A stretch of DNA of 63,737 nucleotides, filler included, from an uncultured Methanosarcinales archaeon (GTDB lineage Archaea > Nanobdellota > Nanobdellia > Woesearchaeales > UBA12501): assembly GCA_964397315.1 (NCBI GenBank). It is 5 parts of 5 records of this genome, joined end to end, with 100 filler letters (N's around TTAATTAATTAA, not from the genome) between each part and the next. Parts side by side here need not be neighbours in the genome. Positions count along the whole stretch, not along the records: positions 42,559 to 55,417 come from CAYNHV010000032.1; 4 more parts are not named here. One strand, written 5' to 3'. Of this stretch, positions 15,770 to 55,517 are shown in pieces. A program made the translations under genes and the position numbers. The first letter of the stretch is position 1, and each line of letters opens with the position of its first letter. A model generated the notes under the pieces. That model saw nothing but the letters and a program-made list of their open reading frames with translations, searched no databases and was not told the DNA's origin.

Positions 15770-15869
15770 NNNNNNNNNNNNNNNNNNNNNNNNNNNNNNN
15801 NNNNNNNNNNNNNTTAATTAATTAANNNNNNNNNNNNNNNNNNNNNNNNNNNNNNNNNNNNNNNNNNNN
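15770..15869. other. Artificial contig linker
   Basis: 100 nt of N with central TTAATTAATTAA (stops in all six frames). Confidence 0.97.
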
Positions 15870-29313: not shown

Positions 29314-29413
29314 NNNNNNNNNNNNNNNNNNNNNNNNNNNNNNNNNNNNNNNNNNNNTTAATTAATTAANNNNNNNNNNNNNNNNNNNNNNNNNNNNNNN
29401 NNNNNNNNNNNNN
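29314..29413. other. Artificial contig linker
   Basis: 100-nt N/TTAATTAATTAA. Confidence 0.97.
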
Positions 29414-42458: not shown

Positions 42459-42558
42459 NNNNNNNNNNNNNNNNNNNNNNNNNNNNNNNNNNNNNNNNNN
42501 NNTTAATTAATTAANNNNNNNNNNNNNNNNNNNNNNNNNNNNNNNNNNNNNNNNNNNN
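42459..42558. other. Artificial contig linker
   Basis: 100-nt N/TTAATTAATTAA. Confidence 0.97.
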
Positions 42559-42561
42559 CTA

Positions 42562-42613
42562 GAATAAGTTTTTTACGCCACCAGTCAAAGACTGGTGGAA
42601 AGCTCAGCTTCTA
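42562..42613 (-). mobile_element. Second copy of the hairpin element end
   Basis: Reverse complement of 42407-42458; supplies the stop codon of ORF 42585-42818. Confidence 0.6.
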
Positions 42614-42818
42614 GAGTCATGTGAGGATCATTTCTGAATTCCTGTCTAAAAACTTTTACAAACTTATTATCTGAAGTTAAATAGTATTCATCAAAATAAC
42701 CTATCTCATTCTCAATTAAGGGTATTTTCTCTGACAGCACATTAGCTTCTTTTAGGAGTTCTTCGATATTCGGCTTTCCTGTAAGATCGATGATTGACAT
42801 TCTTATATGCAATACCAT
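42585..42818 (-). pseudogene. Hypothetical gene truncated by element insertion
   Basis: Last ~9 codons derive from the repeat; AT-rich ORF. Confidence 0.5.
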
Positions 42819-43008
42819 ATTCCATATTTAAATCTTTCTATTTTTATCTACTATTTAGTAATAACGTTATTCATTACTTTATAGACAGGAGATTATAATT
42901 CAACCATGCGCCCAAAAAACCCTCAAAAACAGAGGATATGCTGTTGAGGACACCCCACAAGGGCCGGGGGTGAAGAGGATTTAATTCTATGAAAGGCATT
43001 GCTGTAAC

Positions 43009-43135
43009 AAAAATCCGCAGCTCACGGTTAATAGGCTAAAGCCTATGGTTTTGCGCTGCCGCTTTTGGCAGGCGGATTCTTGGAGCTTTTAAAAGCCTTC
43101 ATCTCCGCACTGAAGTGCGGAGCTTCCGGCTTATT
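43009..43135 (+). repeat. Hairpin-rich IS200/IS605-like remnant
   Basis: GCGGATT..AAAAGCCTTCATCT-hairpin-CGGCTT homologous to the reverse complement of 59404-59465. Confidence 0.6.
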
Positions 43136-43283
43136 AAAAGTAATCTTTTTGAAACATGGCCAAAAGAAGCGCCTCTGCCCGTATTTGACAGGTATTACCC
43201 AATAAAACCACAAAAATTATATATTATTATGGACTATCAAGAGTATTATTATAAAAGAGATTCGCGGGGCAAGGAGGCTCAAT

Positions 43284-43985
43284 ATGGGGGTTATACTACA
43301 GTTAAAAATTGCAGTGGAATGGATTTCCCCTGAAATATGGAGAAGATTTCTAGTTAAAGACAAAATAAGCTTTGAGGATTTGCACAATATAATCCAGGTC
43401 ATTATGGGGTGGGAAAATTACCATATGTTTGAATTCCAGGTAGGTGATGAAGTAATCACTTCTGATGAAGAAGAACCATTTAATGCGGCGGAGAGCTGTT
43501 TGCATAAACTCGTTGAATCTCCTGAATTCCATAAGATGATGGAACAAGAGGATCTGAGCAGAGGCTCAGCATCTTTGGATGTAGACAAGTTAAATAAGAT
43601 TCTTAAGAATGCGGAGAAAAACCAGACCAAAAGTAAGTTTAATGTGGCCGCCAAAATTGGCGAACTTATAAAATCAGAAGGCCAGAAATTTGCTTACCTC
43701 TATGATTTTGGTGATAATTGGGTGCATAGCATTATTGTAGAGAAAATACTGGATGAAAAAGAGGCGGGCGGGGCTCCGGTATGCCTGGCTGGTGAACGTG
43801 CCTGCCCCCCTGAAGATTGCGGAAGCGTGGAAGGCTATTATGAACTGTTAAAAATACAAAAGAACAAAAAACATCCCAGATACAGAGAAATGATAGCTGA
43901 ATGGCTTGGTGAAGATTTTGATTTTGAAGTGTTTGATATCAAAATGGTGAATAAAGAGCTGAAAACCATTGCAGGGATAAAATGA
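43284..43985 (+). CDS. Plasmid pRiA4b ORF-3 family protein
   Basis: PEIWRRF, MGWENYHMFEF, YLYDFGDNWVH, GERACPPEDCG. Confidence 0.9.
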   Translation: MGVILQLKIAVEWISPEIWRRFLVKDKISFEDLHNIIQVIMGWENYHMFEFQVGDEVITSDEEEPFNAAESCLHKLVESPEFHKMMEQEDLSRGSASLDVDKLNKILKNAEKNQTKSKFNVAAKIGELIKSEGQKFAYLYDFGDNWVHSIIVEKILDEKEAGGAPVCLAGERACPPEDCGSVEGYYELLKIQKNKKHPRYREMIAEWLGEDFDFEVFDIKMVNKELKTIAGIK

Positions 43986-44248
43986 AGGAATCTCAAAACT
44001 TAGAAGAGAATAATGGCTTCTGGTCAGAGGGTTATTTTGCAGAGACAATGGACCCTCGGGAATGGAAGAAAAGGAAAAGGACTTTTTCAATGGGGCATGA
44101 TGAAGAGATGAATTATAACTGCAAGAGATGTAATAAAAAGATATCTGCCCATAATAAAGACTGGCATGATGGAATGTGCGACAGCTGCTTTGATAAAGAA
44201 TACCATCAAGAATTTGATGAAACCCAAAAGACCCTACTTGATATGTGA
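43982..44248 (+). CDS. Hypothetical Zn-binding protein
   Basis: CKRC..HNKDWHDGMCDSC. Confidence 0.6.
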   Translation: MKESQNLEENNGFWSEGYFAETMDPREWKKRKRTFSMGHDEEMNYNCKRCNKKISAHNKDWHDGMCDSCFDKEYHQEFDETQKTLLDM

Positions 44249-44390
44249 TTCAGAGCCATCCACCCATTTTTCCTCAACAAAGCTTATATTCCTGATCTTA
44301 TCAATCCCTGTAGAAAGAGAGTCATCCGCAAAAGTCTTTTCATGGGAGAAGACAGACATCGCCCCTAAGCTCAAAGCGGATGCAGACGGA

Positions 44391-44441
44391 ATGCCCGGCT
44401 CTGAGAAGGAGGGAGAAGAGGTTCCTCTGGACGGGCAGTGA
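44391..44441 (+). repeat. 51-bp direct repeat copy 1 (encodes MPGSEKEGEEVPLDGQ*)
   Basis: 46/51 identical to 45259-45309. Confidence 0.85.
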
Positions 44442-44473
44442 AGCTTTTTTATTATCTCTTTTTATTCAGGATT

Positions 44474-44818
44474 TCATTTATAACCCATCAGTTTATTGTA
44501 TTCCTTGTGGTCTGCAATAGTCAGAACAAATAAGAATATCTCTATTTTATTGCCTTCAACTGTGTATAGCATTCTCCAGTAATTTGATAATTCAATCCTG
44601 TAAAGATTATGTACTCCATGTTTTACAAATTCTTTGGGTATAAGTCTCTTTGGTATTGGGTCACCATATTGAGGATTATCCTTCAGTATATCCTTTATCC
44701 TTCTTATTGAATTAAGTATGCTTTTTGCTTCTCTATCATTTCTTTTCTTCAGCTTGATATAGCTTTCTTTTGCCCTGTCTTTCAGTAATATCCTGACCTC
44801 TTTTCCAAGAAACATCAT
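44474..44818 (-). CDS. RelE-like toxin
   Basis: NPQYGDPIPK..NLYRIELSNYWRMLYT..DHKEYNKL. Confidence 0.7.
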   Translation of the reverse strand: MMFLGKEVRILLKDRAKESYIKLKKRNDREAKSILNSIRRIKDILKDNPQYGDPIPKRLIPKEFVKHGVHNLYRIELSNYWRMLYTVEGNKIEIFLFVLTIADHKEYNKLMGYK

Positions 44819-45123
44819 CAGATCTCCACAGTGTTCTCAAGCATCTTCTTGAGATGCTCCGGCTCGCTGTATATCCACTGAACACCTTTTGGTCCGTATA
44901 TAATCTTTCCGCTCCTGAAAAGGTATTCAAGTATTATCTTGAGAGTCTGGTGCATAACCTGTCTGGGGAGCTTTTTCCTTATCTCAGATATCTTCATGGG
45001 CATATCCCTGTGTTTCTTTAGGAAATCCTCTACCATCAGCACAGTATTAAGGTTAGGATACCTGAAAGCCTTATGATCCTTTCTTTTAATCATTTCAGTG
45101 TTGGTAAATTCCAGTCTTTGCAT
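44818..45123 (-). CDS. Putative wHTH antitoxin
   Basis: PNLNTVLMVE..LPRQVMHQTLKIILEYL; coupled to the toxin gene. Confidence 0.6.
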   Translation of the reverse strand: MQRLEFTNTEMIKRKDHKAFRYPNLNTVLMVEDFLKKHRDMPMKISEIRKKLPRQVMHQTLKIILEYLFRSGKIIYGPKGVQWIYSEPEHLKKMLENTVEI

Positions 45124-45258
45124 ATTTATTCCCCTTTCATATCAACTGATACCTATAATGTATCAATTAGTATATAAATGTTTCGGTTTTTGTGAAAATG
45201 CCCTTGCTAAAGGCAATGTCAATGTTTCTGCTTATCTGATGGAGCTGGGGCTGACAGC

Positions 45259-45309
45259 ATGCCCGGCTCTGAGAAAGAAGGTGAGGAGGTTCCGCTGGAC
45301 GGGCAGTGA
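45259..45309 (+). repeat. 51-bp direct repeat copy 2
   Basis: Same peptide, five synonymous differences. Confidence 0.85.
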
Positions 45310-45343
45310 GAATATTTTCTTTTGTTTTTTTTACTTTTATTGT

Positions 45344-45853
45344 TTAATCATATTTTACAAAAAACTGAGCGTTCTTTCTGTCAAACATGGAGGGCATTAT
45401 TGAAAACTCTTTAGGCAGATCACCTTCACTTATCAGATTTATATCATGCACAAAATAAACCCCATTGGATTTAAGAACCCTGTTAACTTCCCAAATCATC
45501 CTGTTAACATCATAACTGACATCTGAGTAACCCTGGTCAAGTATGCATGTTGATACAACTGCATCAAATGTATGATCAGCAAAAGGGATGTGCTGGAAGT
45601 CTGCTTTGACTATATCTGCTGAAGGAACTGACTCTTTTGCTATCTTTACCATTCTCTGACTCTTATCAATGCCATACAGTTCTGTATCAGGATACTTTTC
45701 TGCAATCTTGTTAAGCATATATCCTTCTCCGCATCCTATATCAAGAATCCTGCTGCCTGGCTCAACAATACTTTCAAGCCCTAAATCTCTCATTCCTGTA
45801 CTGAGAAGGCGCATTGTGCTCCTTATTCTTGCTGCTTCATATTTTGGTATCAT
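45344..45853 (-). CDS. Class I SAM-dependent methyltransferase
   Basis: ILDIGCGEG, PFADHTFDAV, RVLKSNG. Confidence 0.85.
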   Translation of the reverse strand: MIPKYEAARIRSTMRLLSTGMRDLGLESIVEPGSRILDIGCGEGYMLNKIAEKYPDTELYGIDKSQRMVKIAKESVPSADIVKADFQHIPFADHTFDAVVSTCILDQGYSDVSYDVNRMIWEVNRVLKSNGVYFVHDINLISEGDLPKEFSIMPSMFDRKNAQFFVKYD

Positions 45854-45964
45854 GTCTGTTCTTACTGATTTCTAATATATAAATCTTTCTCTTTTAGTTA
45901 CTATATGATGGTTACAGTGGGATGTTCCACAATATTTAAATATCCATATACGCAACTGAGGGGC

Positions 45965-47131
45965 ATGTGCGGCATAATAGGCTATGTTGGCCAAAAACAG
46001 GCTTATGATATACTTCTCAAAGGCCTCAAGAGGCCTGAATACAATGGCTATGATTCTGCAGGCATAAGTATTATTGATAGAAAATCAGGCTTTATTATGC
46101 CTAATACCTCCAGTGAGAACATAAGTTTGAATGAAAATAATCATTACTTTATGTATGGACACACAGGGTGGGCTATAGGAAGATTTAAAAAGTCTAATCA
46201 TTCCCTTGATCCAGAAAAATTTGAGAAGAAAGATGATTCTATGAATATACTAAACCTGATTGAAAAAGAGAACTATTATGCTAGGGTCACTGAGGGATTT
46301 CAAGGACTTTTAGATAATAAGACAAAAACCCATAAAAAAATATGCAATGAATTAGGAATTTCTGCCAGAACTTTCTATCGTATGAGAAAACATAAAGGTC
46401 ATTGGTGTAATCTGGAAATCTTGTTTAATATTTCAAGACTATTACAAATAGAAGATAGTTTGCTTATAAATAATATCAATGAGATTAAGACAAAAAACTC
46501 ATTCCCTATAACTCCCATTGAAATAAAATTAAATGATTCTTTGGGAAGGATATTGGGTCATATTCTTGGAGATGGTGGCATTCATGTTAATAAGACGGAG
46601 AGAAAATATCGCGTATTTTATGTTAATAATGAAGAGAGGCTTCTAGATAGATTTAAGCTGGATGTTGAGAATGTATTTGGAGGAAAATCTTTATATTTCA
46701 GAAAAAGAAAGAGCCATGGGGATGAAATCTGGATTTTTTCTTCATTGGGTTTTGTGTTATATGGGCTATTAGATTATGATAAACATATAAATAAAAGAGT
46801 GCCTCTTCTTATAAAGAATTCAGAAGACAAGAGATTTATAGGATCTTTTCTGCAGGCCTTATATGACGATGATGGATTTCTTTACTCTGATAAAAAGATG
46901 ATTGTAATATCCCTTGTTAATCAAAATTTACTGAATGATATACGAAGATTGATAATAAAACTCGGAATCAAGCCAAATAAGGTTTTAATTCATGAATCCA
47001 AGAATAGAAGCAGAATGTATTACTTTTCAATAACAGGAAGAGAGAATATAGTCTGCTTTAAGAAGAGAATAGGTTTTATGCACCCAGTAAAGAAGGACAA
47101 ACTGAATAGGCTATTAGAAAGTTACAAGTGA
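45965..47131 (+). CDS. Free-standing LAGLIDADG endonuclease fused to a degenerate GlmS N-terminus
   Basis: [27 protein letters not shown], then an [13 protein letters not shown] and [10 protein letters not shown] motifs; AT-rich. Confidence 0.85.
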
Positions 47132-47135
47132 TAAT

Positions 47136-48875
47136 ATGTGCGGAATAGCAGGATACATTGGAAGAAGAAAAGCAAGTGGAATATTACTTAACGCTCTTAA
47201 AAGATTGGAGTATAGGGGTTATGATTCTGTAGGTATAGCAACAATGTCTAATAAGAAAATAGATGTCAAAAAGGATATTGGCAGAGTTGAAGATGTTAAC
47301 AAGAGATTGCATCTTGGAGAAATGAAAGGGACTGTAGGAATAGCTCATACTCGTTGGGCCACCACAGGTATACCTTCCCAGACGAACGCCCATCCCCACA
47401 TGGACTGCACTGGAGACATTGCAGTTGTCCACAATGGCATAATAGAAAACTTTCTTGAGCTCAGGCAGAAGCTCAAGAATCACAATTTCCAGTCTGAGAC
47501 TGATTCTGAAGTCATTGCTCATATTATAGAGCAGAACTACACCGGAGATATTAAGCAGGCAGTAATGGATACACTGTCTGAACTCTATGGAACATATGCA
47601 TTATGTGTAATGCACAAGGATCATGATAAGATTATTGTGGCAAGGAACGGAAGCCCGATCGTGATAGGTGTAGGAGATAATGAGAACCTTGTTGCAAGTG
47701 ATGTATCAGCTCTTGTTGAGCATACAAAAAAGGTCATATATCTTGATGATCTTGAGACAGCAGTGCTCAAGAAAGACAGTGTTGAGGTGTCTGACAGGAA
47801 CGGAAAAAAGACTGACAAGAAGATAACAGATATTGATTGGGACCTTACACTGGCAGAGAAAGCAGGGTACAAGCATTTCATGCTGAAGGAGATCAACGAG
47901 CAGCCTGATGTCATAAGAAACACCCTGAATGTTGAGATGCCTGAGATAAAGGATGACTACAGGAACATATTCATAGTTGCGTGCGGAACAGCATTCCATG
48001 CAGGTCTTGCAGGAAAGTACATAATAGAGAAGCATGCAAAGATTCCGGTAATAGTTGATTCTGCTTCAGAATTCAGGTACAGGGATCCGATCATAGGAAA
48101 GGAAGACCTGTTCATAGCAATATCCCAGTCAGGAGAGACAGCAGACACTCTTGAAGCTCTCAGGCTTGCAAAGAAGAAAGGCGCAAAGACACTGGGAATA
48201 ATCAATGTGATGAACTCCACAATAGCAAGAGAGAGCGATGAAGTTGTCTATACAAGAGCAGGCATGGAGATAGGTGTTGCATCAACAAAAGCATATACCT
48301 CACAGCTCATTGTGCTTTACATGCTGGCAGAAAAGCTTGCAGGAAAGAGCATTGAAGGCATTCAGTCACTCGCATCCTCTGTGCAGGACATACTTGATGG
48401 AAACCACATACATGATGTTGCAAAGAGATACTTCAGAGTCTATAACTTCCTCTTCATAGGAAGGAATTTCAATTATCCCACAGCCCTTGAAGGGGCCCTC
48501 AAGCTCAAGGAGATATCATACATACACGCAGAAGGCTACGGCGCAGGAGAGATGAAGCACGGCCCTATTGCCCTTGTCACAGACCAGGTCCCCACTGTTG
48601 CGATCGCCCCAAAGGATAGTGTGTATCCGAAGATGGTCAGCAATATGCAGGAGATAAAGGCAAGGAATGGAAAGATAATTGCAGTGGCCACAAAAGGGGA
48701 TAAAAGCATAGAGAAATACGCAGATGATGTGATATACATACCAGAGGCAGAGGAGATGCTCTATCCTGTTCTTGCAGTTGTTCCTCTGCAGCTGCTGGCC
48801 TACCACATAGCAGACATGAGAGACTGTGATGTGGACAAACCGAGGAATCTGGCAAAGAGCGTTACAGTTGAGTGA
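47136..48875 (+). CDS. glmS: Glutamine-fructose-6-phosphate transaminase
   Basis: MCGIAG, LEYRGYDS, AHTRWAT, SQSGETADT, VDKPRNLAKSVTVE. Confidence 0.97.
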   Translation: MCGIAGYIGRRKASGILLNALKRLEYRGYDSVGIATMSNKKIDVKKDIGRVEDVNKRLHLGEMKGTVGIAHTRWATTGIPSQTNAHPHMDCTGDIAVVHNGIIENFLELRQKLKNHNFQSETDSEVIAHIIEQNYTGDIKQAVMDTLSELYGTYALCVMHKDHDKIIVARNGSPIVIGVGDNENLVASDVSALVEHTKKVIYLDDLETAVLKKDSVEVSDRNGKKTDKKITDIDWDLTLAEKAGYKHFMLKEINEQPDVIRNTLNVEMPEIKDDYRNIFIVACGTAFHAGLAGKYIIEKHAKIPVIVDSASEFRYRDPIIGKEDLFIAISQSGETADTLEALRLAKKKGAKTLGIINVMNSTIARESDEVVYTRAGMEIGVASTKAYTSQLIVLYMLAEKLAGKSIEGIQSLASSVQDILDGNHIHDVAKRYFRVYNFLFIGRNFNYPTALEGALKLKEISYIHAEGYGAGEMKHGPIALVTDQVPTVAIAPKDSVYPKMVSNMQEIKARNGKIIAVATKGDKSIEKYADDVIYIPEAEEMLYPVLAVVPLQLLAYHIADMRDCDVDKPRNLAKSVTVE

Positions 48876-49051
48876 TTTTTCTGATTAGAATCTAGTTACA
48901 ATGATTATTCAGAGGGCTTCTGACTAAAGGAAAGAATGCCCTCCTTGATTGCTGGGTCAAGGAAGAAGATCCTTGGTGGACAAGCTAAGGAATTTAGCTA
49001 AAAGTGTTACAGTAAAATGAAACTCTAATTATGGCATCTGCTCTCTCTGTT

Positions 49052-49681
49052 TCAGAGCAATTCAATCCCGTCCCTTATTATCTCATTAACCAGTGAATGC
49101 TTTGATTTCCTGAGCTTCTCAAACTCCTGCTCAGTGAATGAGTGCATCTGAATATTTTTCTTGAATCTCTTCTCAATCCTTTCTGCAATCTGCTCCAGCA
49201 TCAAGTCATCTTCAGCCTTTATTTTTTTCTCTGTGATTATGCAGAGGTCAATATCTGAATCCTTTCTGTACCTTGTCTTTACAGATGAGCCAAAGAGGCT
49301 TATTTTCCTGGGCTCTATTACATCCAGGCACATCCTTGTGAATTCCCTCAATATTATTGATATCTCAAGACCCAGGTTGTTCAGTTTTTCTTTTTCCAGC
49401 CTGCATAACTCGCTTATCAGCGCTGTGAATTTATTGGCAAGATTCAGTTTGTAGTATATTTTTTTGCCGTCTTTTGCTGATTTAATTATGTCAAATTCTT
49501 TCAGGATTTTCAGGGTGTCTGTGAGTGATTTTGAGCCCAGCCTGGTGAATCTTTTAATTTCTTCCCTAGTTATGCCTCTTCCAGGCACATCCGAAAGAAC
49601 AGCAAGAATCCTCCATGCTGATTTTGATCCCATACAGATGTCAAGCAGCATTTTTATGGTCATCCTCTTCTGGTTTTTCAT
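49052..49681 (-). CDS. wHTH plus minimal nucleotidyltransferase (MNT antitoxin)
   Basis: LFGSS..DSDIDLC; N-terminal wHTH. Confidence 0.85.
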   Translation of the reverse strand: MKNQKRMTIKMLLDICMGSKSAWRILAVLSDVPGRGITREEIKRFTRLGSKSLTDTLKILKEFDIIKSAKDGKKIYYKLNLANKFTALISELCRLEKEKLNNLGLEISIILREFTRMCLDVIEPRKISLFGSSVKTRYRKDSDIDLCIITEKKIKAEDDLMLEQIAERIEKRFKKNIQMHSFTEQEFEKLRKSKHSLVNEIIRDGIELL

Positions 49682-50249
49682 GATCTGCTGACAGCATTTC
49701 CTCCATTGTGCTGATATAAGGCCTTACTATGTTATCAAGAAAATATACAGATTTTTGGGAGTTTATCTCCTGGAAATCCCTGGAATAATACTGTGTCTTG
49801 CCTCTTTCTGTCCTGCCTTTCCTGAGCATTAATGATATGGTCTTTTCCTGTAGCCTTGTTACATTAAAGAAGCTTATTTCAGCTTTTTTTAATAATTCAA
49901 TTATTCTTTCTTTCTCTTTTTTGTCCTGGATAAACCTCCCCAGAGCTTCCAGTGTCCTGCTGTGAATGTTCTCCCCTGTAATCTTTATATTATGGATTAT
50001 TCCCAGGTAAAGCTTTGTGATGTCGTGCATTGCGTAATACCCTGAGATAATGCTCCAGCGCGGGAATTCTATCATGTCTTTCTTTGCATGTTTTAAGTCA
50101 TCCTTATATGCGTTCTCATGGAACCTGATCCAGAAATCCTTCTCAACCTCAGGCAGGCTGTCATAAGGAGCGGGCTCTTCTGACTCCTTGTTCTCTTCTT
50201 CTCCTGCAGTGTTTTCCCTGCTCTTTTCTTTTTCCATTCTAAATAACAA
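49641..50249 (-). CDS. HEPN-domain protein
   Basis: WSIISGYYAMHD, ENIH, ERGKTQYY; adjacent to MNT. Confidence 0.7.
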   Translation of the reverse strand: MLFRMEKEKSRENTAGEEENKESEEPAPYDSLPEVEKDFWIRFHENAYKDDLKHAKKDMIEFPRWSIISGYYAMHDITKLYLGIIHNIKITGENIHSRTLEALGRFIQDKKEKERIIELLKKAEISFFNVTRLQEKTISLMLRKGRTERGKTQYYSRDFQEINSQKSVYFLDNIVRPYISTMEEMLSADHEKPEEDDHKNAA

Positions 50250-50630
50250 AAAAGTGTCATAAAAATCATTTATTTAAATATTTAGACACTTTTCTGCTTT
50301 ATTTTAGGCAGAAAAGTGGCAGAAGTATATAAAGGTTTTGGTTTTTCAAGCCCAGGAACCTGGCGAAAAGTGTCACAGTAGAATGATATAAAGGAATAGC
50401 GAGACAGGACCCTGCAGGTGTCCCGCCTCTTTTTTCTAAAAAAATGCATCAGGCTGTGCCGGCTCACGCCCTTATTTTTTCACACCCTGATATATGGATT
50501 ATGGTTTTTCACTATTATAAATTTATCCAGGGTTTATCCAAACAATAATAGCAAAATAACAAATTATACTATACATTTGTTTGATTATAAGGCCAAAATA
50601 TTTATATATTTTAAACAAGTATACCATGCC

Positions 50631-51122
50631 ATGGCAGGCGGAAGTTCAGCTGGGAAGCTCAGGAGCGCGGAAAACGCAGGTATTGACGAGACAGACACCT
50701 CTATCATGAACATACTTCTTGACAACAGCAGGCTGTCCTACAGGCAGATAGCAAAAAAAGCAGGAGTGTCTGTGGCAACAGTCATGCACAGGATAAAAAG
50801 GCTTGAGAGCAGGGGCATAATAAGGAAATACACTGCAAAGCTTGACTACGACAAGATAGGGTATGACATTGTGGCCATCATTGACATAAAGATATCAAAG
50901 GGAAAGCTTGCCATGATGGAGAAAAGGATAGCCTCTCATGAGAATGTGATAGCCTGCTATGACATAACAGGCGAGTTTGATGCCCAGATAACAACAAGAT
51001 TCAGGAGCAGGAAAGGCCTTGACTCTTTCCTAAAGAAGATACAGACTTACGAGTTCGTGGAGAGGACAAGAACCAACCTTGTGCTTAATGTCATAAAAGA
51101 GGAGCAGAACAAGGTGAGATAA
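50631..51122 (+). CDS. Lrp/AsnC-family regulator
   Basis: NSRLSYRQIAKKAGVSVATVMHRIKRLE, YDITGEFD; ATG 50631 after TATA. Confidence 0.9.
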   Translation: MAGGSSAGKLRSAENAGIDETDTSIMNILLDNSRLSYRQIAKKAGVSVATVMHRIKRLESRGIIRKYTAKLDYDKIGYDIVAIIDIKISKGKLAMMEKRIASHENVIACYDITGEFDAQITTRFRSRKGLDSFLKKIQTYEFVERTRTNLVLNVIKEEQNKVR

Positions 51123-51127
51123 CCGCT

Positions 51128-51289
51128 TCAATCCCCCTTCCCGCGGAGTATGAATGTTTTCAGCATGAGATAGACCGAGGCAATTATTATGACATAGCTT
51201 ATTGCAGTCAGGACTGTTGTTTCTGAGAAATAGAGCAGGACAAGGCCTGCTATGAAAAGCAGGAAAAACTTGACAAGGTGTATCTTCAT
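51128..51289 (-). CDS. Small two-TM protein
   Basis: MKIHLVKFFLLFIAGLVLLYF..; 53 aa, downstream of apt. Confidence 0.55.
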   Translation of the reverse strand: MKIHLVKFFLLFIAGLVLLYFSETTVLTAISYVIIIASVYLMLKTFILRGKGD

Positions 51290-51313
51290 TTTGCTCAAAC
51301 CGCCTCCCTAAGT

Positions 51314-51841
51314 TTACTCGCCCTCAAAGGCGCACTGGGAATATAGATTATATCCTGCCTTTTTTAATTTTGCGCTTCCCCCTATATCAGGCAGGTCAAC
51401 TATGAATGCGCATTCAACCACTTTCCCGCCCAGCTTCTCAACAAGCCTGCAGGTTGCGAGAGCCGTACCTCCTGTGGCAAGCAGGTCGTCAACAACAAGA
51501 GCCTTCTGGCCTTTTGGCATAGCATCCTTGTGTATCTCCACAGTGTCAGTGCCATACTCAAGCTCATACTCTTCTGACTCAGTCTCATGGGGCAGCTTGC
51601 CCTTTTTTCTGACAGGCACAAACCCCTTCTCAAGAAGGTAAGCCAGAGCTCCGCCGAGTATGAAGCCCCTGCTGTCAATGCCCACTATGACATCAATATC
51701 GCTATCCTTGTACCTCTTCATGAAATCATCAATAACCAGCCTGAACCCGACAGGGTCCTTGAGAAGCGTTGTTATGTCCCTGAACATTATTCCCTTCTTG
51801 GGCCAGTCAGGCACTGTCCTTATTCTTGATTTTATTGGCAT
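51314..51841 (-). CDS. apt: Adenine phosphoribosyltransferase
   Basis: PDWPKKGIMFRDIT, RKKGKLP, VDDLLATGGT. Confidence 0.96.
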   Translation of the reverse strand: MPIKSRIRTVPDWPKKGIMFRDITTLLKDPVGFRLVIDDFMKRYKDSDIDVIVGIDSRGFILGGALAYLLEKGFVPVRKKGKLPHETESEEYELEYGTDTVEIHKDAMPKGQKALVVDDLLATGGTALATCRLVEKLGGKVVECAFIVDLPDIGGSAKLKKAGYNLYSQCAFEGE

Positions 51842-51845
51842 TTTC

Positions 51846-52598
51846 TCAGTCCTTTATTCTGGATATTGTATTCACCAGAAGTTTTGTAACTTTGCCGACA
51901 TTCTCCTCAAATATCTTCAGGACCGCCTCCCAAGTGACAGGCTCCTCATCCTGTTTCCAGCAGTCATAGTCAGTTGACATTGCAACTGCGGCATAAGGTA
52001 TGCCTGCCTCGTTTGCAAGTATTGCCTCAGGAGCTATGCTCATGTTTATCACGTCAGCACCCAACTGCCTGAACATAACACTCTCTGCCCTTGTGGAGAA
52101 CCTGGGGCCTTCAATGGTAACAACAGTGCCGGAAGGGTGATGCTTTATGCCAAGCTCTTTCGCGGATTCTATAAGCGCTGACCTCATCTCCCTGCTGAAG
52201 GGCTCTGCCATCGGAGTATGTTTCATGCCGCCGGGCTTGAACTCCTCATGGAATGTTACATGCCTGTGCCTTGTGAAGTCAATGAACTGGTCAAGTATGA
52301 CAAAATCACCCCTGCCTATCCCCTCCTTAAGAGAGCCGCACGCAGTCGTCGCCAGGATATGGGTGCAGCCTGCATCCTTCAGCGCCCTGATGTTGGCCCT
52401 GTAATTGACCTGCGTGGGAGGCACAGTGTGCTGCCTGCCGTGCCTTGCGAGAAGCACCACATCAACCCCATTAATCCTTCCCTGCTTCAGCATTGAGGAG
52501 GGCTTGCCGTAGGGGGTGTTGGCCTCAACATCCCCTGCGTCCTCCAGAATATCAGGATCATCCAGCCCAGAGCCCCCGATTATGCCTATCTTTACCAT
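51846..52598 (-). CDS. mtnP: S-methyl-5'-thioadenosine phosphorylase
   Basis: IGIIGGSG, ARHG, EGPRFSTRAES, STDYDCW. Confidence 0.95.
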   Translation of the reverse strand: MVKIGIIGGSGLDDPDILEDAGDVEANTPYGKPSSMLKQGRINGVDVVLLARHGRQHTVPPTQVNYRANIRALKDAGCTHILATTACGSLKEGIGRGDFVILDQFIDFTRHRHVTFHEEFKPGGMKHTPMAEPFSREMRSALIESAKELGIKHHPSGTVVTIEGPRFSTRAESVMFRQLGADVINMSIAPEAILANEAGIPYAAVAMSTDYDCWKQDEEPVTWEAVLKIFEENVGKVTKLLVNTISRIKD

Positions 52599-52737
52599 TT
52601 GCTGATTACTTGGTGCCAGTAAAATGAGATGGTTTTTATATATTTTGTTCTTTGCGCCACCAGCCTATAATCCACACCCTCTTTGACACCATTATAAAAT
52701 GATAAAATTTATATATTAAGTTTACAGACTGCATTTT

Positions 52738-53241
52738 ATGGGTGGTTACAAAAGGAATGTGGACCTTTATGATATGTTTCAGGATCTCCTGAACAGCGGA
52801 TTTGGTTACAATGATATCGGGCTTCTTTATGTAAGGGCTGTCAGCAATATCCCAAAGATTTCAAAGCTGTCGCATATTCCATCCACGAATGAAAAGACTC
52901 AGAGGAAGATTAAAAAGAGGTTTCAGGATTATCTAAGGGAATTCTTTAAAGGCGTAAGAAATGATGTTGTGATGAGGAGGCGGGACAGAAAGGAAGTTCT
53001 TGAGCATTACATTTCCCAGGATATATCTCCTGAGAGAACAGAAGTTTCCAAAGGCAAGAACATAGAATCAGCAATAAACAAGATTCTATCATCAGGCATT
53101 GAAGACCCTTATGCCAGGATAGGAGAAGCAATTATCTCGGGCTCCAAGGATTATCTTTCAGAAAAGCCGCCCCAGATGGGAGCATACAAGGTGTTCCTTG
53201 AGTACAACAGGACATACAGTAAACTTGAAGATCTCTTATAG
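52738..53241 (+). CDS. Hypothetical protein
   Basis: 167-aa ORF after TATA, abutting the PhoH gene. Confidence 0.6.
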   Translation: MGGYKRNVDLYDMFQDLLNSGFGYNDIGLLYVRAVSNIPKISKLSHIPSTNEKTQRKIKKRFQDYLREFFKGVRNDVVMRRRDRKEVLEHYISQDISPERTEVSKGKNIESAINKILSSGIEDPYARIGEAIISGSKDYLSEKPPQMGAYKVFLEYNRTYSKLEDLL

Positions 53242-54675
53242 GTGCTGAAGATGGAGGAGAAATACAAGATACCAGACACAAACATACTCCTGACAGACCC
53301 TCAGGCTCTTTACTCTTTCAGACCCCACAAGGAATCTGAAGATAATGGAGGAGTTAATATAATACTTCTGCCTCTTGTGCTTGAAAGGGAACTGGAAAAG
53401 TTTAAAGGAGAGTCGTACAGCCAAAGAGGCGCTAATGCCAGAGAAGTGTTCAGGCAACTTGACATGCTGGAAATAAAATACGGGCAGAAGCTGCATGAGG
53501 GAGTCTGGATCAGTGATGATTACTGCATAAGGTCTGCTTTCTTCATGAGGGAGCATATGCTCGGTGCCTTAGACGGCCTGGTTGAGGAAGGCAATGACAA
53601 GATTTTTCTGGAAGTTGCAAACCAGCTGAAACAGGAGGGAAAAGATGCGGAGCTCATAACAATAGACAGGAGCATGAGAGTAATAGGAAGCTCTCTTGGC
53701 CTGAACGTTTCAGGATGGAGGGACCTGGAACAACAGGAGATCTATAAGGGATGGAGGCAGTTTAGTGTGGACTACACTGTGATAGAGAACATTTATTCAA
53801 CAGCTAAGAACAAGGATGGTGCAAGAAGAATCCCCCCTGAAAAAACAGGAATTGAGGATCCCCTACCCAATGAGTATTTTCTGGTTACTTCAGGAGATAA
53901 GGAAATACCTCTTAAATTCAAGACGAGCGAACAAGGGGGGATGTTCATTACCCTGAAGAGAAGCCCTAACTTCAGCAGCAAGAAAGGTTGTCTTGAGCCT
54001 AAGAACAGAAGACAGGAATTTCTGATGGACGCACTGTATGACCCTGACATAGACTGTGTATTCTCTATAGGTGACGCAGGAACAGGGAAAACCTTTCTGG
54101 CCACTTTTGCGGGGTTTGAACAGTCGCTGATGTACCACCTAAGCGATAAGAACATAGTCATAGACATGCCTTATGAAAGGCTTATAATAACAAGGCCCTT
54201 GATAGGCATAAATGATGAGGAGGATATAGGGGCCCTGCCAGGAGAACTGCATGAGAAGCTCACACCCTGGAACAGGCCTGTCTATGATAATCTTGATCAG
54301 GTTATGGAATTGACCAACACAAAGGATGTGGATATGGACTACCTAAAGGACGAGAAATTCCTTGATGTGCTGCCTATACAAATGGCAAGGGGCTCAAGCC
54401 TGAAGTCATATTACTGGATTGTTGACGAAGCTCAGAACCTTGCCATAGAGAAAATAATGCTTATAGGCACAAGGTCCGGAGAGTACAGCAAGCTTGTGTT
54501 CACCGGCGACCCGCTGCAGTCTGACATAAACCACAGCAGCCCTGCCGCAAGCCCGCTTGTCAGGGCCAGCAACAAGTTTGCTGATTATGAGCATTCTGCC
54601 ACAATATATTTTGAGGAGGAGGATTGTGTCAGGAGCAGGCTCGCAAGAGAGTTCCTCAAGAGATTAAGGCATTAA
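53242..54675 (+). CDS. PIN-domain PhoH-family ATPase (PhoH2/YlaK-like)
   Basis: PDTNILL PIN start, GDAGTGKT Walker A, IGALPG, VDEAQN, TGDPLQSD. Confidence 0.9.
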   Translation: MLKMEEKYKIPDTNILLTDPQALYSFRPHKESEDNGGVNIILLPLVLERELEKFKGESYSQRGANAREVFRQLDMLEIKYGQKLHEGVWISDDYCIRSAFFMREHMLGALDGLVEEGNDKIFLEVANQLKQEGKDAELITIDRSMRVIGSSLGLNVSGWRDLEQQEIYKGWRQFSVDYTVIENIYSTAKNKDGARRIPPEKTGIEDPLPNEYFLVTSGDKEIPLKFKTSEQGGMFITLKRSPNFSSKKGCLEPKNRRQEFLMDALYDPDIDCVFSIGDAGTGKTFLATFAGFEQSLMYHLSDKNIVIDMPYERLIITRPLIGINDEEDIGALPGELHEKLTPWNRPVYDNLDQVMELTNTKDVDMDYLKDEKFLDVLPIQMARGSSLKSYYWIVDEAQNLAIEKIMLIGTRSGEYSKLVFTGDPLQSDINHSSPAASPLVRASNKFADYEHSATIYFEEEDCVRSRLAREFLKRLRH

Positions 54676-55208
54676 AGCTTCTTCCTCTCTGTCTTCCCGC
54701 TCAGAATGTCAGAGTTTCCTGTCTTGTCCTCTATGATTATCCTGCACTTCTCCTGGCCCCACATGATTCTTGTGAGCTTTTTCAGCAGGTTCTTTGCCTT
54801 TTTCTTCTCCTGCTCATCCTCGGAGTTCTCCTTTCTCAGCTCAATGATTCCCTTAACCCTCTTAAGGAGGCCCTCCACTGTGGTTATGTAGCCGTTGGAT
54901 GTGGGGCCTCCTTCTATGGTGACTATGTGAGGAACCTTTACAGTGCCTTCCCCAGACCTCACAACCATTGTATTGAGGTCCTTTTCTCCAGAAACCTCAA
55001 AGGTGCATTTGGAAGGGGCCTGCTGCTCGGCAAACTCAACATCTGCCTTGTGGTACCTGCAGTTTGAGCAGGTCATTGAGAACACGAGAACAGGGATGTT
55101 CCTGCTGCCAAATGGGATGTGCCTTTCCATCTCTGTGAGCCTGCACTTTTTCTCATGGCATACAGGGCATTCCTGGCCTTCAATCGTGTTTATCTTGTCC
55201 TCTGGCAT
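54672..55208 (-). CDS. ZPR1-type zinc finger protein
   Basis: CPVC..IPFG..CSNC, GYITTVEGLL, DKTGNS. Confidence 0.9.
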   Translation of the reverse strand: MPEDKINTIEGQECPVCHEKKCRLTEMERHIPFGSRNIPVLVFSMTCSNCRYHKADVEFAEQQAPSKCTFEVSGEKDLNTMVVRSGEGTVKVPHIVTIEGGPTSNGYITTVEGLLKRVKGIIELRKENSEDEQEKKKAKNLLKKLTRIMWGQEKCRIIIEDKTGNSDILSGKTERKKL

Positions 55209-55274
55209 GGAATAAATTAGGGGAACAGATTATATAAATTTTGTGATTGAATATGATGAAACAATAAAATGAGT

Positions 55275-55417
55275 GATCTTGCCAGAGTTTACCGCCGCCC
55301 TCTTTAGAGTTGGGTTAAGTTATGTTATGGATTTAATGTAAAGATTGTAATTTTTCCAGGCATTACCGCCTCCCTGTTCAGGGATTTTTGTAAATGCTTT
55401 TTCTGCAATCTCTGTTC
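55275..55417 (-). repeat. Partial copy E of the dispersed element (right-arm units only)
   Basis: CCAGAGTTTACCGCCGCCCTCTTTAGAGTT resembles the copy B units; second unit 74 nt on; ends at gap. Confidence 0.55.
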
Positions 55418-55517
55418 NNNNNNNNNNNNNNNNNNNNNNNNNNNNNNNNNNNNNNNNNNNNTTAATTAATTAANNNNNNNNNNNNNNNNNNNNNNNNNNN
55501 NNNNNNNNNNNNNNNNN
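55418..55517. other. Artificial contig linker
   Basis: 100-nt N/TTAATTAATTAA. Confidence 0.97.

Follow-up and report, generated by a model that had tools for sequence, protein, structure and literature searches.

A glmS gene was found to be interrupted by a free-standing LAGLIDADG homing endonuclease gene, which leaves a displaced remnant of the glmS 5' end upstream and is followed directly by a full-length glmS. The arrangement is probably a mobile cassette built on the endonuclease, which carries a replacement for the gene end that it displaces. The locus belongs to an uncultured archaeon (assembly GCA_964397315.1) and lies in a window of 63,737 nucleotides (nt), by which the whole stretch of DNA analysed is meant. 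N runs at positions 15770-15869, 29314-29413, 42459-42558 and 55418-55517 join at least five contigs of this metagenome-assembled genome (MAG), and features on either side of a join need not be neighbours in the genome. The glmS and endonuclease genes are located on contig C32 (positions 42559-55417, 12,859 nt), 3.4 kb inside the contig end. G000 designates the genome under study, G001 a relative from the same genus, and L and P numbers the loci and proteins that were compared.

Architecture of the glmS locus

An open reading frame (ORF) on the + strand extends from 45905 to 47131, with an in-frame ATG at 45965 and a TGA stop codon at 47129-47131, and an intact glmS of 579 codons (47136-48875) begins 4 nt (TAAT) past this stop. 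The locus consists of remnant, linker, endonuclease and full glmS, with the following features (basis of assignment in brackets).

45935-45942, + strand: TATA-like box TTTAAATA, predicted promoter of the native glmS (30 nt upstream of the ATG that opens the remnant)
45965-46174, + strand: displaced native glmS 5' end, a 70-codon remnant MCGI...GHTGWA in frame with the endonuclease (GlmS homology)
46175-46240, + strand: 22-codon linker in the reading frame of the remnant, with which the inserted element probably begins (semi-conserved after H-x-R-W-A in many homologues)
46241-47131, + strand: free-standing homing endonuclease gene, 296 codons and stop, with its own conserved ATG (MNILN) (Pfam, structure model, homologues)
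about 46316-46396, + strand: N-terminal helix-turn-helix (HTH) region of the endonuclease (weak Pfam matches, model helices)
46553-46579, + strand: LAGLIDADG motif 1, LGHILGDGG (read from the sequence)
46850-46876, + strand: LAGLIDADG motif 2, LQALYDDDG (read from the sequence)
47132-47135, + strand: 4 nt (TAAT) separating the endonuclease stop from the glmS ATG (sequence)
47136-47339, + strand: replacement glmS 5' segment, codons 1-68, AT-rich and very probably foreign (composition, synonymous divergence)
47340-47411, + strand: glmS codons 69-92, GC-rich yet very probably foreign, with the variant target site (nonsynonymous and synonymous differences from relatives)
47346-47369, + strand: reconstituted target site HTRWATTG (codon-by-codon comparison with empty sites)
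47412-48875, + strand: native remainder of glmS, codons 93-579 and stop (3' trees, 82% amino acid identity to G001, SIS domains)

The equivalent of the insertion site in the working glmS falls between 47360 and 47361. Residues 1-70 of the remnant align with GlmS residues 1-75 (31/75 identical, E 3e-12) and cover positions 1-74 of the NCBIfam glmS model with 48 bits. The downstream GlmS scores 798 bits over model positions 1-607 of NCBIfam TIGR01135 (cut-off 418), starts with MCGI, in which Cys follows Met, has GATase_6/7 and SIS domains in Pfam, and is the sole full-length copy in the G000 genome. The linker has a GC content of 0.288. A partial Shine-Dalgarno-like sequence, GTGAT at 47128-47132, overlaps the endonuclease stop and is the only such trace in the locus.

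The endonuclease matches Pfam LAGLIDADG_3 (E 5.5e-11, 43 bits, cut-off 22.5), and its HTH matches are weak (E 0.02-0.05, under the cut-offs). An AlphaFold2 model of the protein has a pLDDT of 90.8, and its best Foldseek matches are intein endonucleases and I-DmoI (probability 1.00, E 2e-10 to 2e-8), with a TM-score of up to 0.76 normalised to I-DmoI; they include the TliVMA intein, PI-PkoII and PI-PfuI, and WhiA appears at rank 49. The nearest solved relative by sequence profile is PI-PkoII (E 1.5e-6). Residues G110-D111-G112-G113 and D209-D210-G212 are invariant in 12/12 family members, and the acidic positions of both motifs are presumably the catalytic ones, as in I-DmoI. The protein is under purifying selection, with ratios of nonsynonymous to synonymous substitution (dN/dS) of 0.07-0.23 across 7 homologue pairs. 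By its two motifs, profile match and modelled fold the protein can be classed as a predicted single-chain LAGLIDADG homing endonuclease. The invariant acidic residues, sporadic distribution, co-travelling glmS 5' segments and target-site variants described below would fit a nuclease that is active or was so recently.

The origin of the two glmS 5' ends was examined with 29 glmS loci taken from 40 relatives. None of these loci gave a tblastn match to the endonuclease, and the same-genus glmS genes are uninterrupted, representing empty alleles. By blastn, G001 is 82.5% identical to positions 45869-46065 (197 nt, comprising the promoter and the first 101 nt of the remnant), and the similarity resumes at 78% from 47323 onward, that is from about glmS codon 63; about 80 nt in G001 compared with about 1.26 kb in G000 separate the two blocks. 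The promoter box and the first 99 nt of the remnant are 82-88% identical to the same-genus empty allele. The TATA-like box is equally distant from the ATG in the empty alleles of family f1, a spacing which suggests a leaderless or near-leaderless glmS mRNA.

Remnant codons 1-33 share 87/99 nt with G001 and have a proportion of synonymous differences (pS) of 0.28, whereas the same codons of the functional copy share 65/99 nt and have a pS of 0.82; relatives within the genus differ among themselves by pS 0.30-0.39. Over codons 1-68 the functional copy shows pS 0.72-0.82 against genus relatives (0.46-0.64 among the relatives), and the amino acid identity of the functional 5' segment to relatives is 0.59-0.63 (0.77-0.85 among them). 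Codons 69-92 have a proportion of nonsynonymous differences (pN) of 0.23-0.24 and a pS of 0.81-1.00 against relatives, which have pN 0.02-0.06 among themselves. Codons 1-92 are thus saturated at synonymous sites, and the foreign tract appears to reach about codon 92 (47411). Codons 93-579 are those of an ordinary genus member (pS 0.56 against G001, with 0.59-0.68 among genus relatives, and 82% amino acid identity), and 3' trees place G000 as sister to G001 (97*, 95* and 94). The GC content is 0.458 in the genome, 0.305 in the endonuclease, 0.358 in glmS codons 1-68 (0.25 at third codon positions, GC3), 0.556 in codons 69-92 and 0.443 in codons 93-579 (GC3 0.47), and a 5' GC deficit as large as that of glmS occurs in 2.1% of 514 long ORFs of G000. 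A working copy cannot outpace its pseudogenised twin after a shared duplication, which argues that the functional 5' end is a separate DNA lineage, and on this sequence evidence it is very probably foreign in origin. No donor was found for the G000 5' segment, the best amino acid identity being 0.64, to the endonuclease-bearing locus L036.

The remnant itself is native-like over codons 1-33 and strongly diverged over codons 34-64; its similarity to G001 collapses at about codon 33 and returns at GHTGWA. This loss may reflect co-conversion of the junction-proximal part from a donor remnant that had already decayed. A 98%-identical protein on another contig shares the same decayed stretch, and differs at 10/92 leader compared with 6/296 endonuclease positions (Fisher p 8e-4).

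A first-pass annotation of this DNA, made from the sequence alone, had described an ORF that opens on a decayed GlmS N-terminus (GHTGWA for AHTRWA), continues in frame into an HTH and two LAGLIDADG motifs, and stops 4 nt before an intact glmS, and the features above agree with it, with the HTH weak in Pfam. Its proposals that the element borrows the host promoter and start, and that empty alleles could be sought in related MAGs, are likewise borne out by the same-genus comparison. It had placed a switch from AT-rich to host-like codons near HTRWAT; the compositional switch was located there, at about 47340, just before that motif, and the foreign tract extends further, about 17 codons past HTRWA.

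Related loci, phylogenies and proposed target sites

A protein search returned 47 homologues of 211-415 amino acids (aa), many of which begin with MCGI... and carry GlmS remnants in all states of decay. In these homologues the remnant stops at H-x-R/G-W-A, after which come a semi-conserved linker and MNILN. Close relatives in species-representative genomes were found by an alignment-based scan (a single-protein scan found none) and account for 11 of the 39 loci returned (44-53% identity); in all 11 a full-length glmS starts within a few bases of the endonuclease stop. Metagenomes contributed close relatives at 18 of 80 loci, and the 16 informative ones all show the endonuclease followed by a full-length glmS, L087 and L090 being excluded from the architecture counts as their contigs end at or inside the endonuclease. 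After removal of redundancy, 24 loci including G000 were retained, and in 24/24 the endonuclease is followed directly by a full-length glmS, with a spacer of -16 to +5 nt. A remnant is detectable in 17/24, and the remnant and linker together measure 28-97 aa. The start motif ATGTGYGG is present within 500 nt upstream in 16/24 loci, is in frame with the endonuclease in 16/16, and the frame is open in 15/16; preservation of the frame in a decaying leader suggests that initiation at the glmS start is important to the element. A Shine-Dalgarno-like 4-mer precedes the new glmS ATG in 17/24 loci, G000 not being among these. In L085, which is truncated at its contig edge, the in-frame remnant ...GIAHTRWA is essentially intact and runs into the linker LERFNKS; its near-intact state points to a recent event. 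The endonuclease was detected in 6 of 401 sampled genomes of the order, each from a different genus and family.

A profile search of the whole library gave 2810 matches at E <= 1e-3 and 622 at E <= 1e-10, with about 13 top cluster representatives belonging to the glmS-linked family. L046-L073 are 28 distant LAGLIDADG loci (<= 36% identity) from other lineages, which have neither an adjacent glmS nor an N-terminal host-gene remnant. The proteins of L046-L073 and L092-L153 form a far larger set of free-standing HTH and LAGLIDADG_3 proteins of 300-400 aa, 24-36% identical to the G000 endonuclease; they occur in DPANN archaea and some candidate-phyla bacteria, next to diverse genes, among them ribosomal protein L44e-like ORFs and an alanyl-tRNA-synthetase-sized ORF.

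L035 and L038 (metagenome duplicates L074 and L076) have no detectable remnant and no Shine-Dalgarno-like 4-mer. Their endonuclease ATG is preceded at about 33 nt by a TATA-like CTTATAAAG, and their glmS ATG at about 26 nt by a TTTTAAAAAG that is situated within the endonuclease 3' end. These predicted promoters suggest two leaderless transcripts rather than one operon.

Separate trees of glmS codons 1-92 (5') and 93 to the end (3') were built from 49 sequences, 22 endonuclease carriers and 27 empty alleles, leaving out L024 (frameshifted glmS) and L034 (not a GlmS orthologue, 29% identity). The 5' tree requires 7 changes of carrier label, against a shuffled mean of 16.3 (0/500 shuffles as low), and the 3' tree requires 12 (shuffled mean 16.3, 10-12/500 as low), of which starred branches dictate 9 or more. 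The trees support the view that 5' segments cluster by endonuclease presence and that 3' parts follow the host. The members of a carriers-only 5' group of seven (SH-aLRT 89) are spread over three distinct starred clades of the 3' tree, and monophyly of this group is rejected on the 3' data (p-AU 7e-56 in the approximately unbiased, AU, test). The endonuclease tree (92/91) and the 33-row 5' tree (80/85) both pair L039 with L043, a clade which the 3' data reject (p 6e-32). The L085 remnant falls within the starred clade of empty alleles of its host family (99*) and the functional 5' segment falls outside it, with the 3' part again within the host-family clade (100*); the native 5' end is therefore closer to relatives than the inserted one in L085 by tree, as it is in G000 by nucleotide identity. 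Holding the G000 5' end with its genus relatives was rejected in the AU test with 33 rows and a careful tree (p 0.002).

Empty alleles read G-H-T-R-W-A-T-H-G at the site in the codon alignment. The canonical HTRWATHG is present in 0/23 endonuclease-bearing alleles compared with 23/28 endonuclease-free relatives, with a Fisher p of 1e-9 that is overstated because the sequences are related. Among the 23 carrier alleles, 11 have A->S, 1 has A->G, and 11 keep the Ala and have the His two codons on changed to T, N, M or C; the G000 site, HTRWATTG, is of the latter kind. The endonuclease-free variant sites are L018 (G025) HSRWSTHG, L019 (G039) HCRWATHG, L021 (G031) HCRWGTHG, L023 (G034) HTRWSTHG and L028 (G017) HTRWATTG, and these five are candidates for immune alleles or former carriers. 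L018, L019 and L021 form a starred 3' clade with the carriers L039, L080 and L083, which together may be the source lineage of the element-type 5' segment.

Three further endonuclease-free glmS genes, L031 (G036:C50), L017 (G012:C16) and L012 (G011:C55), have in-frame insertions of about 20-65 aa. These lie in a variable loop (residues ~40 to ~64) upstream of HTRWATHG, and that of G036 is the largest.

Proposed mechanism and alternatives

In the proposed model the endonuclease would target the DNA of the conserved HTRWA|THG motif in the GlmS glutaminase domain of Woesearchaeota/Nanoarchaeia-type (DPANN) archaea, and the cassette would comprise the linker, the endonuclease gene and replacement glmS codons 1 to about 90. 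By entering behind the Ala codon of HTRWA, the cassette would displace the host 5' end, which is left upstream as a decaying in-frame leader, so that the endonuclease would be transcribed from the glmS promoter and could be translated from the native start codon, as well as from its own conserved ATG. GlmS would be made from the cassette-borne 5' segment and the native 3' part, and translated as a second cistron a few bases past the endonuclease stop. The site substitutions (A->S/G or H->T/N/M/C) presumably protect the working gene from self-cleavage. An empty allele would be cut at the HTRWA|THG codons, and double-strand-break repair would copy the cassette from a carrier, with the old remnant as the left homology arm and glmS past the site as the right arm, so that flanking sequence would be co-converted. 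The recipient's own 5' end would become the new leader under its own promoter. Alternatively the left end might pair with the imported 5' copy, in which case the variant site alone would be transferred and endonuclease-free immune alleles would result. Active cleavage, immunity of the variant sites and translation of the fusion are each put forward with less assurance than the cassette itself, the balance being slightly in their favour.

A wider reading, offered tentatively since all its parts taken together have a little under an even chance of holding, is that the 5' third of the glmS glutaminase domain is a horizontally mobile 'exon' in DPANN archaea. An active endonuclease family would spread by repeatedly swapping the glmS 5' third, and whichever 5' end an invasion found in place, whether the native one or one brought by an earlier element, would be left as the in-frame leader of the newcomer. 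Possible cases of such serial invasion, weakly supported, are P0034 and L040, whose remnants look element-type. Dependence of the endonuclease on the start codon at the very 5' end of a leaderless glmS mRNA would be what keeps the leader frame open. Insertion-point substitutions would be immunity alleles that outlast loss of the endonuclease, with L018, L021, L023 and L028 as candidates, and the whole would be a complete homing cycle in archaeal chromosomes without an intron or intein.

Several observations weigh against the cassette model. All of the evidence comes from MAGs and metagenome contigs, and no clear Shine-Dalgarno 4-mer precedes the new glmS of G000. The 5' trees are poorly resolved, with 4-11 of 46 branches starred on 92 alignment columns. 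With 49 rows the same-genus AU test of the G000 5' end gave p 0.16 (careful tree) and p 0.54 (quick tree), the latter being uninformative because the free search missed a better tree and the constrained tree scored higher; the 92-column tree alone would accordingly be compatible with a native 5' end on a long branch. Endonuclease-free L018 and L021 group with the carriers L039, L080 and L083 in both 5' and 3' trees, a clade to which the element-type 5' end may simply be native. In L037, L077 and L081 the 5' segments look congruent with their hosts, and the remnants of these loci have dN/dS of 0.20-0.32, unlike a freely decaying pseudogene, a value explicable if each remnant derives from its own host's once-functional gene. 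The AT-rich 5' contrast of G000 is not general across the other loci, and the five endonuclease-free relatives listed above have non-canonical sites.

One other explanation, which we consider very unlikely, is that the HTH-LAGLIDADG protein has been domesticated: it would have given up homing and be retained to regulate the co-transcribed glmS by binding DNA, or to assist its expression. The purifying selection on the endonuclease (dN/dS 0.07-0.23), its N-terminal HTH region (weak Pfam matches and model helices), its tight and conserved coupling to glmS at 24/24 loci and the presence of the LAGLIDADG-fold transcription factor WhiA among its fold matches would all suit such a role. A regulator would not readily explain the invariance of the acidic residues of both motifs (12/12), the presence of the gene in so few of the sampled genomes while close relatives manage without it, the co-travel of 5' segments across hosts, or site variants exactly at the insertion point in 23/23 alleles.

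It is likewise very unlikely that the insertion is old and immobile, with one ancient tandem 5' duplication having captured the endonuclease, followed by vertical descent, many losses and fast evolution of the 5' end in situ. The lack of robust significance in the AU test of the G000 5' end (p 0.16 and 0.54) would be expected under this history, and some carrier clades are monophyletic in the 3' tree (L035/36/38, L037/77/81 and L039/80/83), which indicates vertical inheritance within clades. Against it, remnant codons 1-33 are as near to G001 as genus relatives are to one another, with the functional copy synonymously saturated; the endonuclease occurs in six families among the 6/401 genomes, and the 3' tree has to accommodate 9 or more label changes; 5' segments from three starred 3' clades group together where the 3' data reject this (p 7e-56); and the essentially intact L085 remnant points to a recent event.

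A degenerate GlmS intein, or the leftover of a group I intron, is highly improbable as the source of the endonuclease. Its nearest solved relatives are intein endonucleases (PI-PkoII by profile; the TliVMA intein, PI-PkoII and PI-PfuI by fold), the longer proteins checked among the best 150 of the 2810 profile matches are MCM and ribonucleotide reductase inteins with HTH inserts, and the Thr after the insertion point could conceivably be a +1 nucleophile. Genuine inteins among the distant relatives score 1e-30 to 1e-47 for Intein_splicing, whereas the endonuclease ORF has no match to an Intein_splicing or Hint family in Pfam at E <= 0.1, and no Rfam intron family was matched at E <= 1 in 45300-49000. 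The residue after the remnant junction is Ile, where an intein would start with Cys or Ser, and the ORF ends ...ESYK, stop, followed by 4 nt and a new ATG that opens a complete second 5' end, with no terminal HN. None of the longer proteins checked among the best 150 is GlmS, no intein host of GlmS size occurs among these 150, and a search for longer homologues found no fused long form, which is weak evidence. GlmS of Methanocaldococcus jannaschii contains an intein; no article on a GlmS intein was found in the open-access literature searched. As judged from these defining features of sequence, the endonuclease is neither an intein nor borne by a group I intron.

An assembly artefact joining the glmS 5' ends of two strains is extremely improbable, although the MAG consists of 61 contigs and the studied stretch of joined contigs, as the locus is well inside a contig of 12,859 nt, the same architecture recurs in 23 other non-redundant assemblies, and both junctions are bridged elsewhere. 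Logan contigs of three runs from one study were mapped on 45700-47600, and the run that is probably the source spans this region without interruption. Contigs of two further samples (runs X2 and X3) bridge promoter, remnant, linker and endonuclease (45711-46572 and 46096-46260) and also endonuclease, glmS and HTRWA (46829-47221 and 47032-47579) with 0-1 differences, which argues against chimeric joins; these samples are from the same study and hence not fully independent.

The remaining claims of the first-pass annotation fared as follows. Its insertion point at HTRWA is confirmed by where the remnants end, here and in homologues, with L085 as the clearest case; its reading of the element as having no intein and no intron stands, with a stop and a new ATG separating two genes; and the chimeric join that it had named as a risk was countered by the bridging contigs. 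A replacement 5' half-gene is upheld by synonymous saturation, composition and clustering across hosts, and is less secure for G000 when judged by the AU test alone; its proposed resistance to cleavage is suggested by the site variants. The separate phylogenies that it had called for gave a sister relationship of the 3' part to G001 and label clustering in the 5' part, with a G000 5' end for which the AU results diverge (p 0.002, 0.16 and 0.54). Overall the earlier interpretation is supported as far as sequence alone can test it.

Neighbouring genes and comparison with known systems

Upstream of the glmS locus, a GC-rich element of 89 nt with a terminal T-run occurs twice, at 44375-44463 and 45243-45331, with 79% identity between the copies, which flank a two-ORF cassette. 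The second copy gives a sub-threshold match to an Rfam group II intron model (21.6 bits, gathering score 40, E 0.14). Between the copies, at 44474-45123 (- strand), lie two short ORFs, 114 aa and 101 aa long, which overlap; the former has weak ParE-like toxin matches (E 5e-4 to 8e-4, under the cut-offs), the latter has no Pfam family, and the two may be a toxin-antitoxin pair. Downstream, at 49052-50249 (- strand), a 209-aa nucleotidyltransferase (Polbeta/NTP_transf_2, 1e-9) overlaps a 202-aa ORF without a Pfam family, a layout that we take to resemble nucleotidyltransferase/HEPN pairs. No tRNA was found on contig C32.

To our knowledge, homing endonucleases have been thought to persist in essential genes only by way of self-splicing introns or inteins. 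The known exception is gene-end replacement, described for the C-termini of fungal mitochondrial genes, and the glmS cassette would be the mirror-image solution in archaeal cellular chromosomes, as a conserved family in at least 24 lineages. It would give selfish nucleases a third route into conserved active-site codons of prokaryotes, independent of protein or RNA splicing. A part of glmS with its own phylogeny calls for caution in marker-gene trees and in checks of MAGs for chimeras. The endonuclease is also a candidate nuclease with a target motif, HTRWATHG, that is very widely conserved in GlmS, for which natural candidate resistant alleles are now catalogued. No description of the cassette was found in the open-access literature (subscription journals were outside coverage), and the literature on homing endonucleases in Woesearchaeota, in the parts of it available, includes a study of rRNA group I introns only.

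The glmS endonuclease shares the LAGLIDADG fold and motifs with PI-PkoII, PI-PfuI, the TliVMA intein and I-DmoI, and differs from them in having no splicing domain or intron, an identity of 16-23%, and an extra N-terminal HTH of about 95 residues. Free-standing phage endonucleases such as T4 SegF and MobE home without an intron by cutting genomes that lack them, with co-conversion of flanking markers. The glmS endonuclease is likewise without intron or intein, and its spread by cutting is proposed here; unlike it, the phage genes are intergenic, cut a neighbouring gene, do not interrupt a reading frame and bring no replacement gene end. Phage 21 and e14 in icd, and elements that integrate into tRNA genes, carry a substitute end for the target gene and leave a displaced partial copy, so that insertion results in a working gene and a partial one, as in the glmS cassette. 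These elements integrate by means of site-specific recombinases and att sites and substitute 3' ends, whereas the glmS cassette has no integrase and would move by homology-directed repair after cleavage.

The 'fractured genes' of Dassa et al. 2009, as described in the available part of that article, combine split inteins with a free-standing endonuclease in an essential gene (PMC2677866). They and the glmS locus have in common a free-standing endonuclease inside an essential gene whose function is kept; fractured genes rebuild the protein by split-intein trans-splicing, whereas GlmS is encoded whole by means of the replacement segment.

The closest known analogue appears to be the mORF hybrids of fungal mitochondria, in which, according to the available part of the article describing them, a LAGLIDADG or GIY-YIG ORF enters atp6, atp9, cox2 or nad3 together with a foreign C-terminal segment, the native C-terminus stays downstream and is nearer to relatives than the inserted end, and the ORF is often in phase (PMC3630166). 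The cases given there are Allomyces macrogynus atp6 (as cited therein), Glomus sp. atp6, atp9, cox2 and nad3, Rhizopus atp9 and Mortierella cox2 (PMC3630166). As in these hybrids, the glmS endonuclease ORF stands between a displaced native end and an inserted duplicate end. In the mORF hybrids so described the C-terminus is replaced and the native 3' end lies downstream, whereas the glmS cassette replaces the N-terminus; the native 5' end remains on its upstream side, and promoter and start codon thereby pass to the element. By this analogy the glmS cassette would be their mirror image and, unlike those organellar insertions, it is found in a chromosomal housekeeping gene of archaea, as one family at one site in 24 loci.

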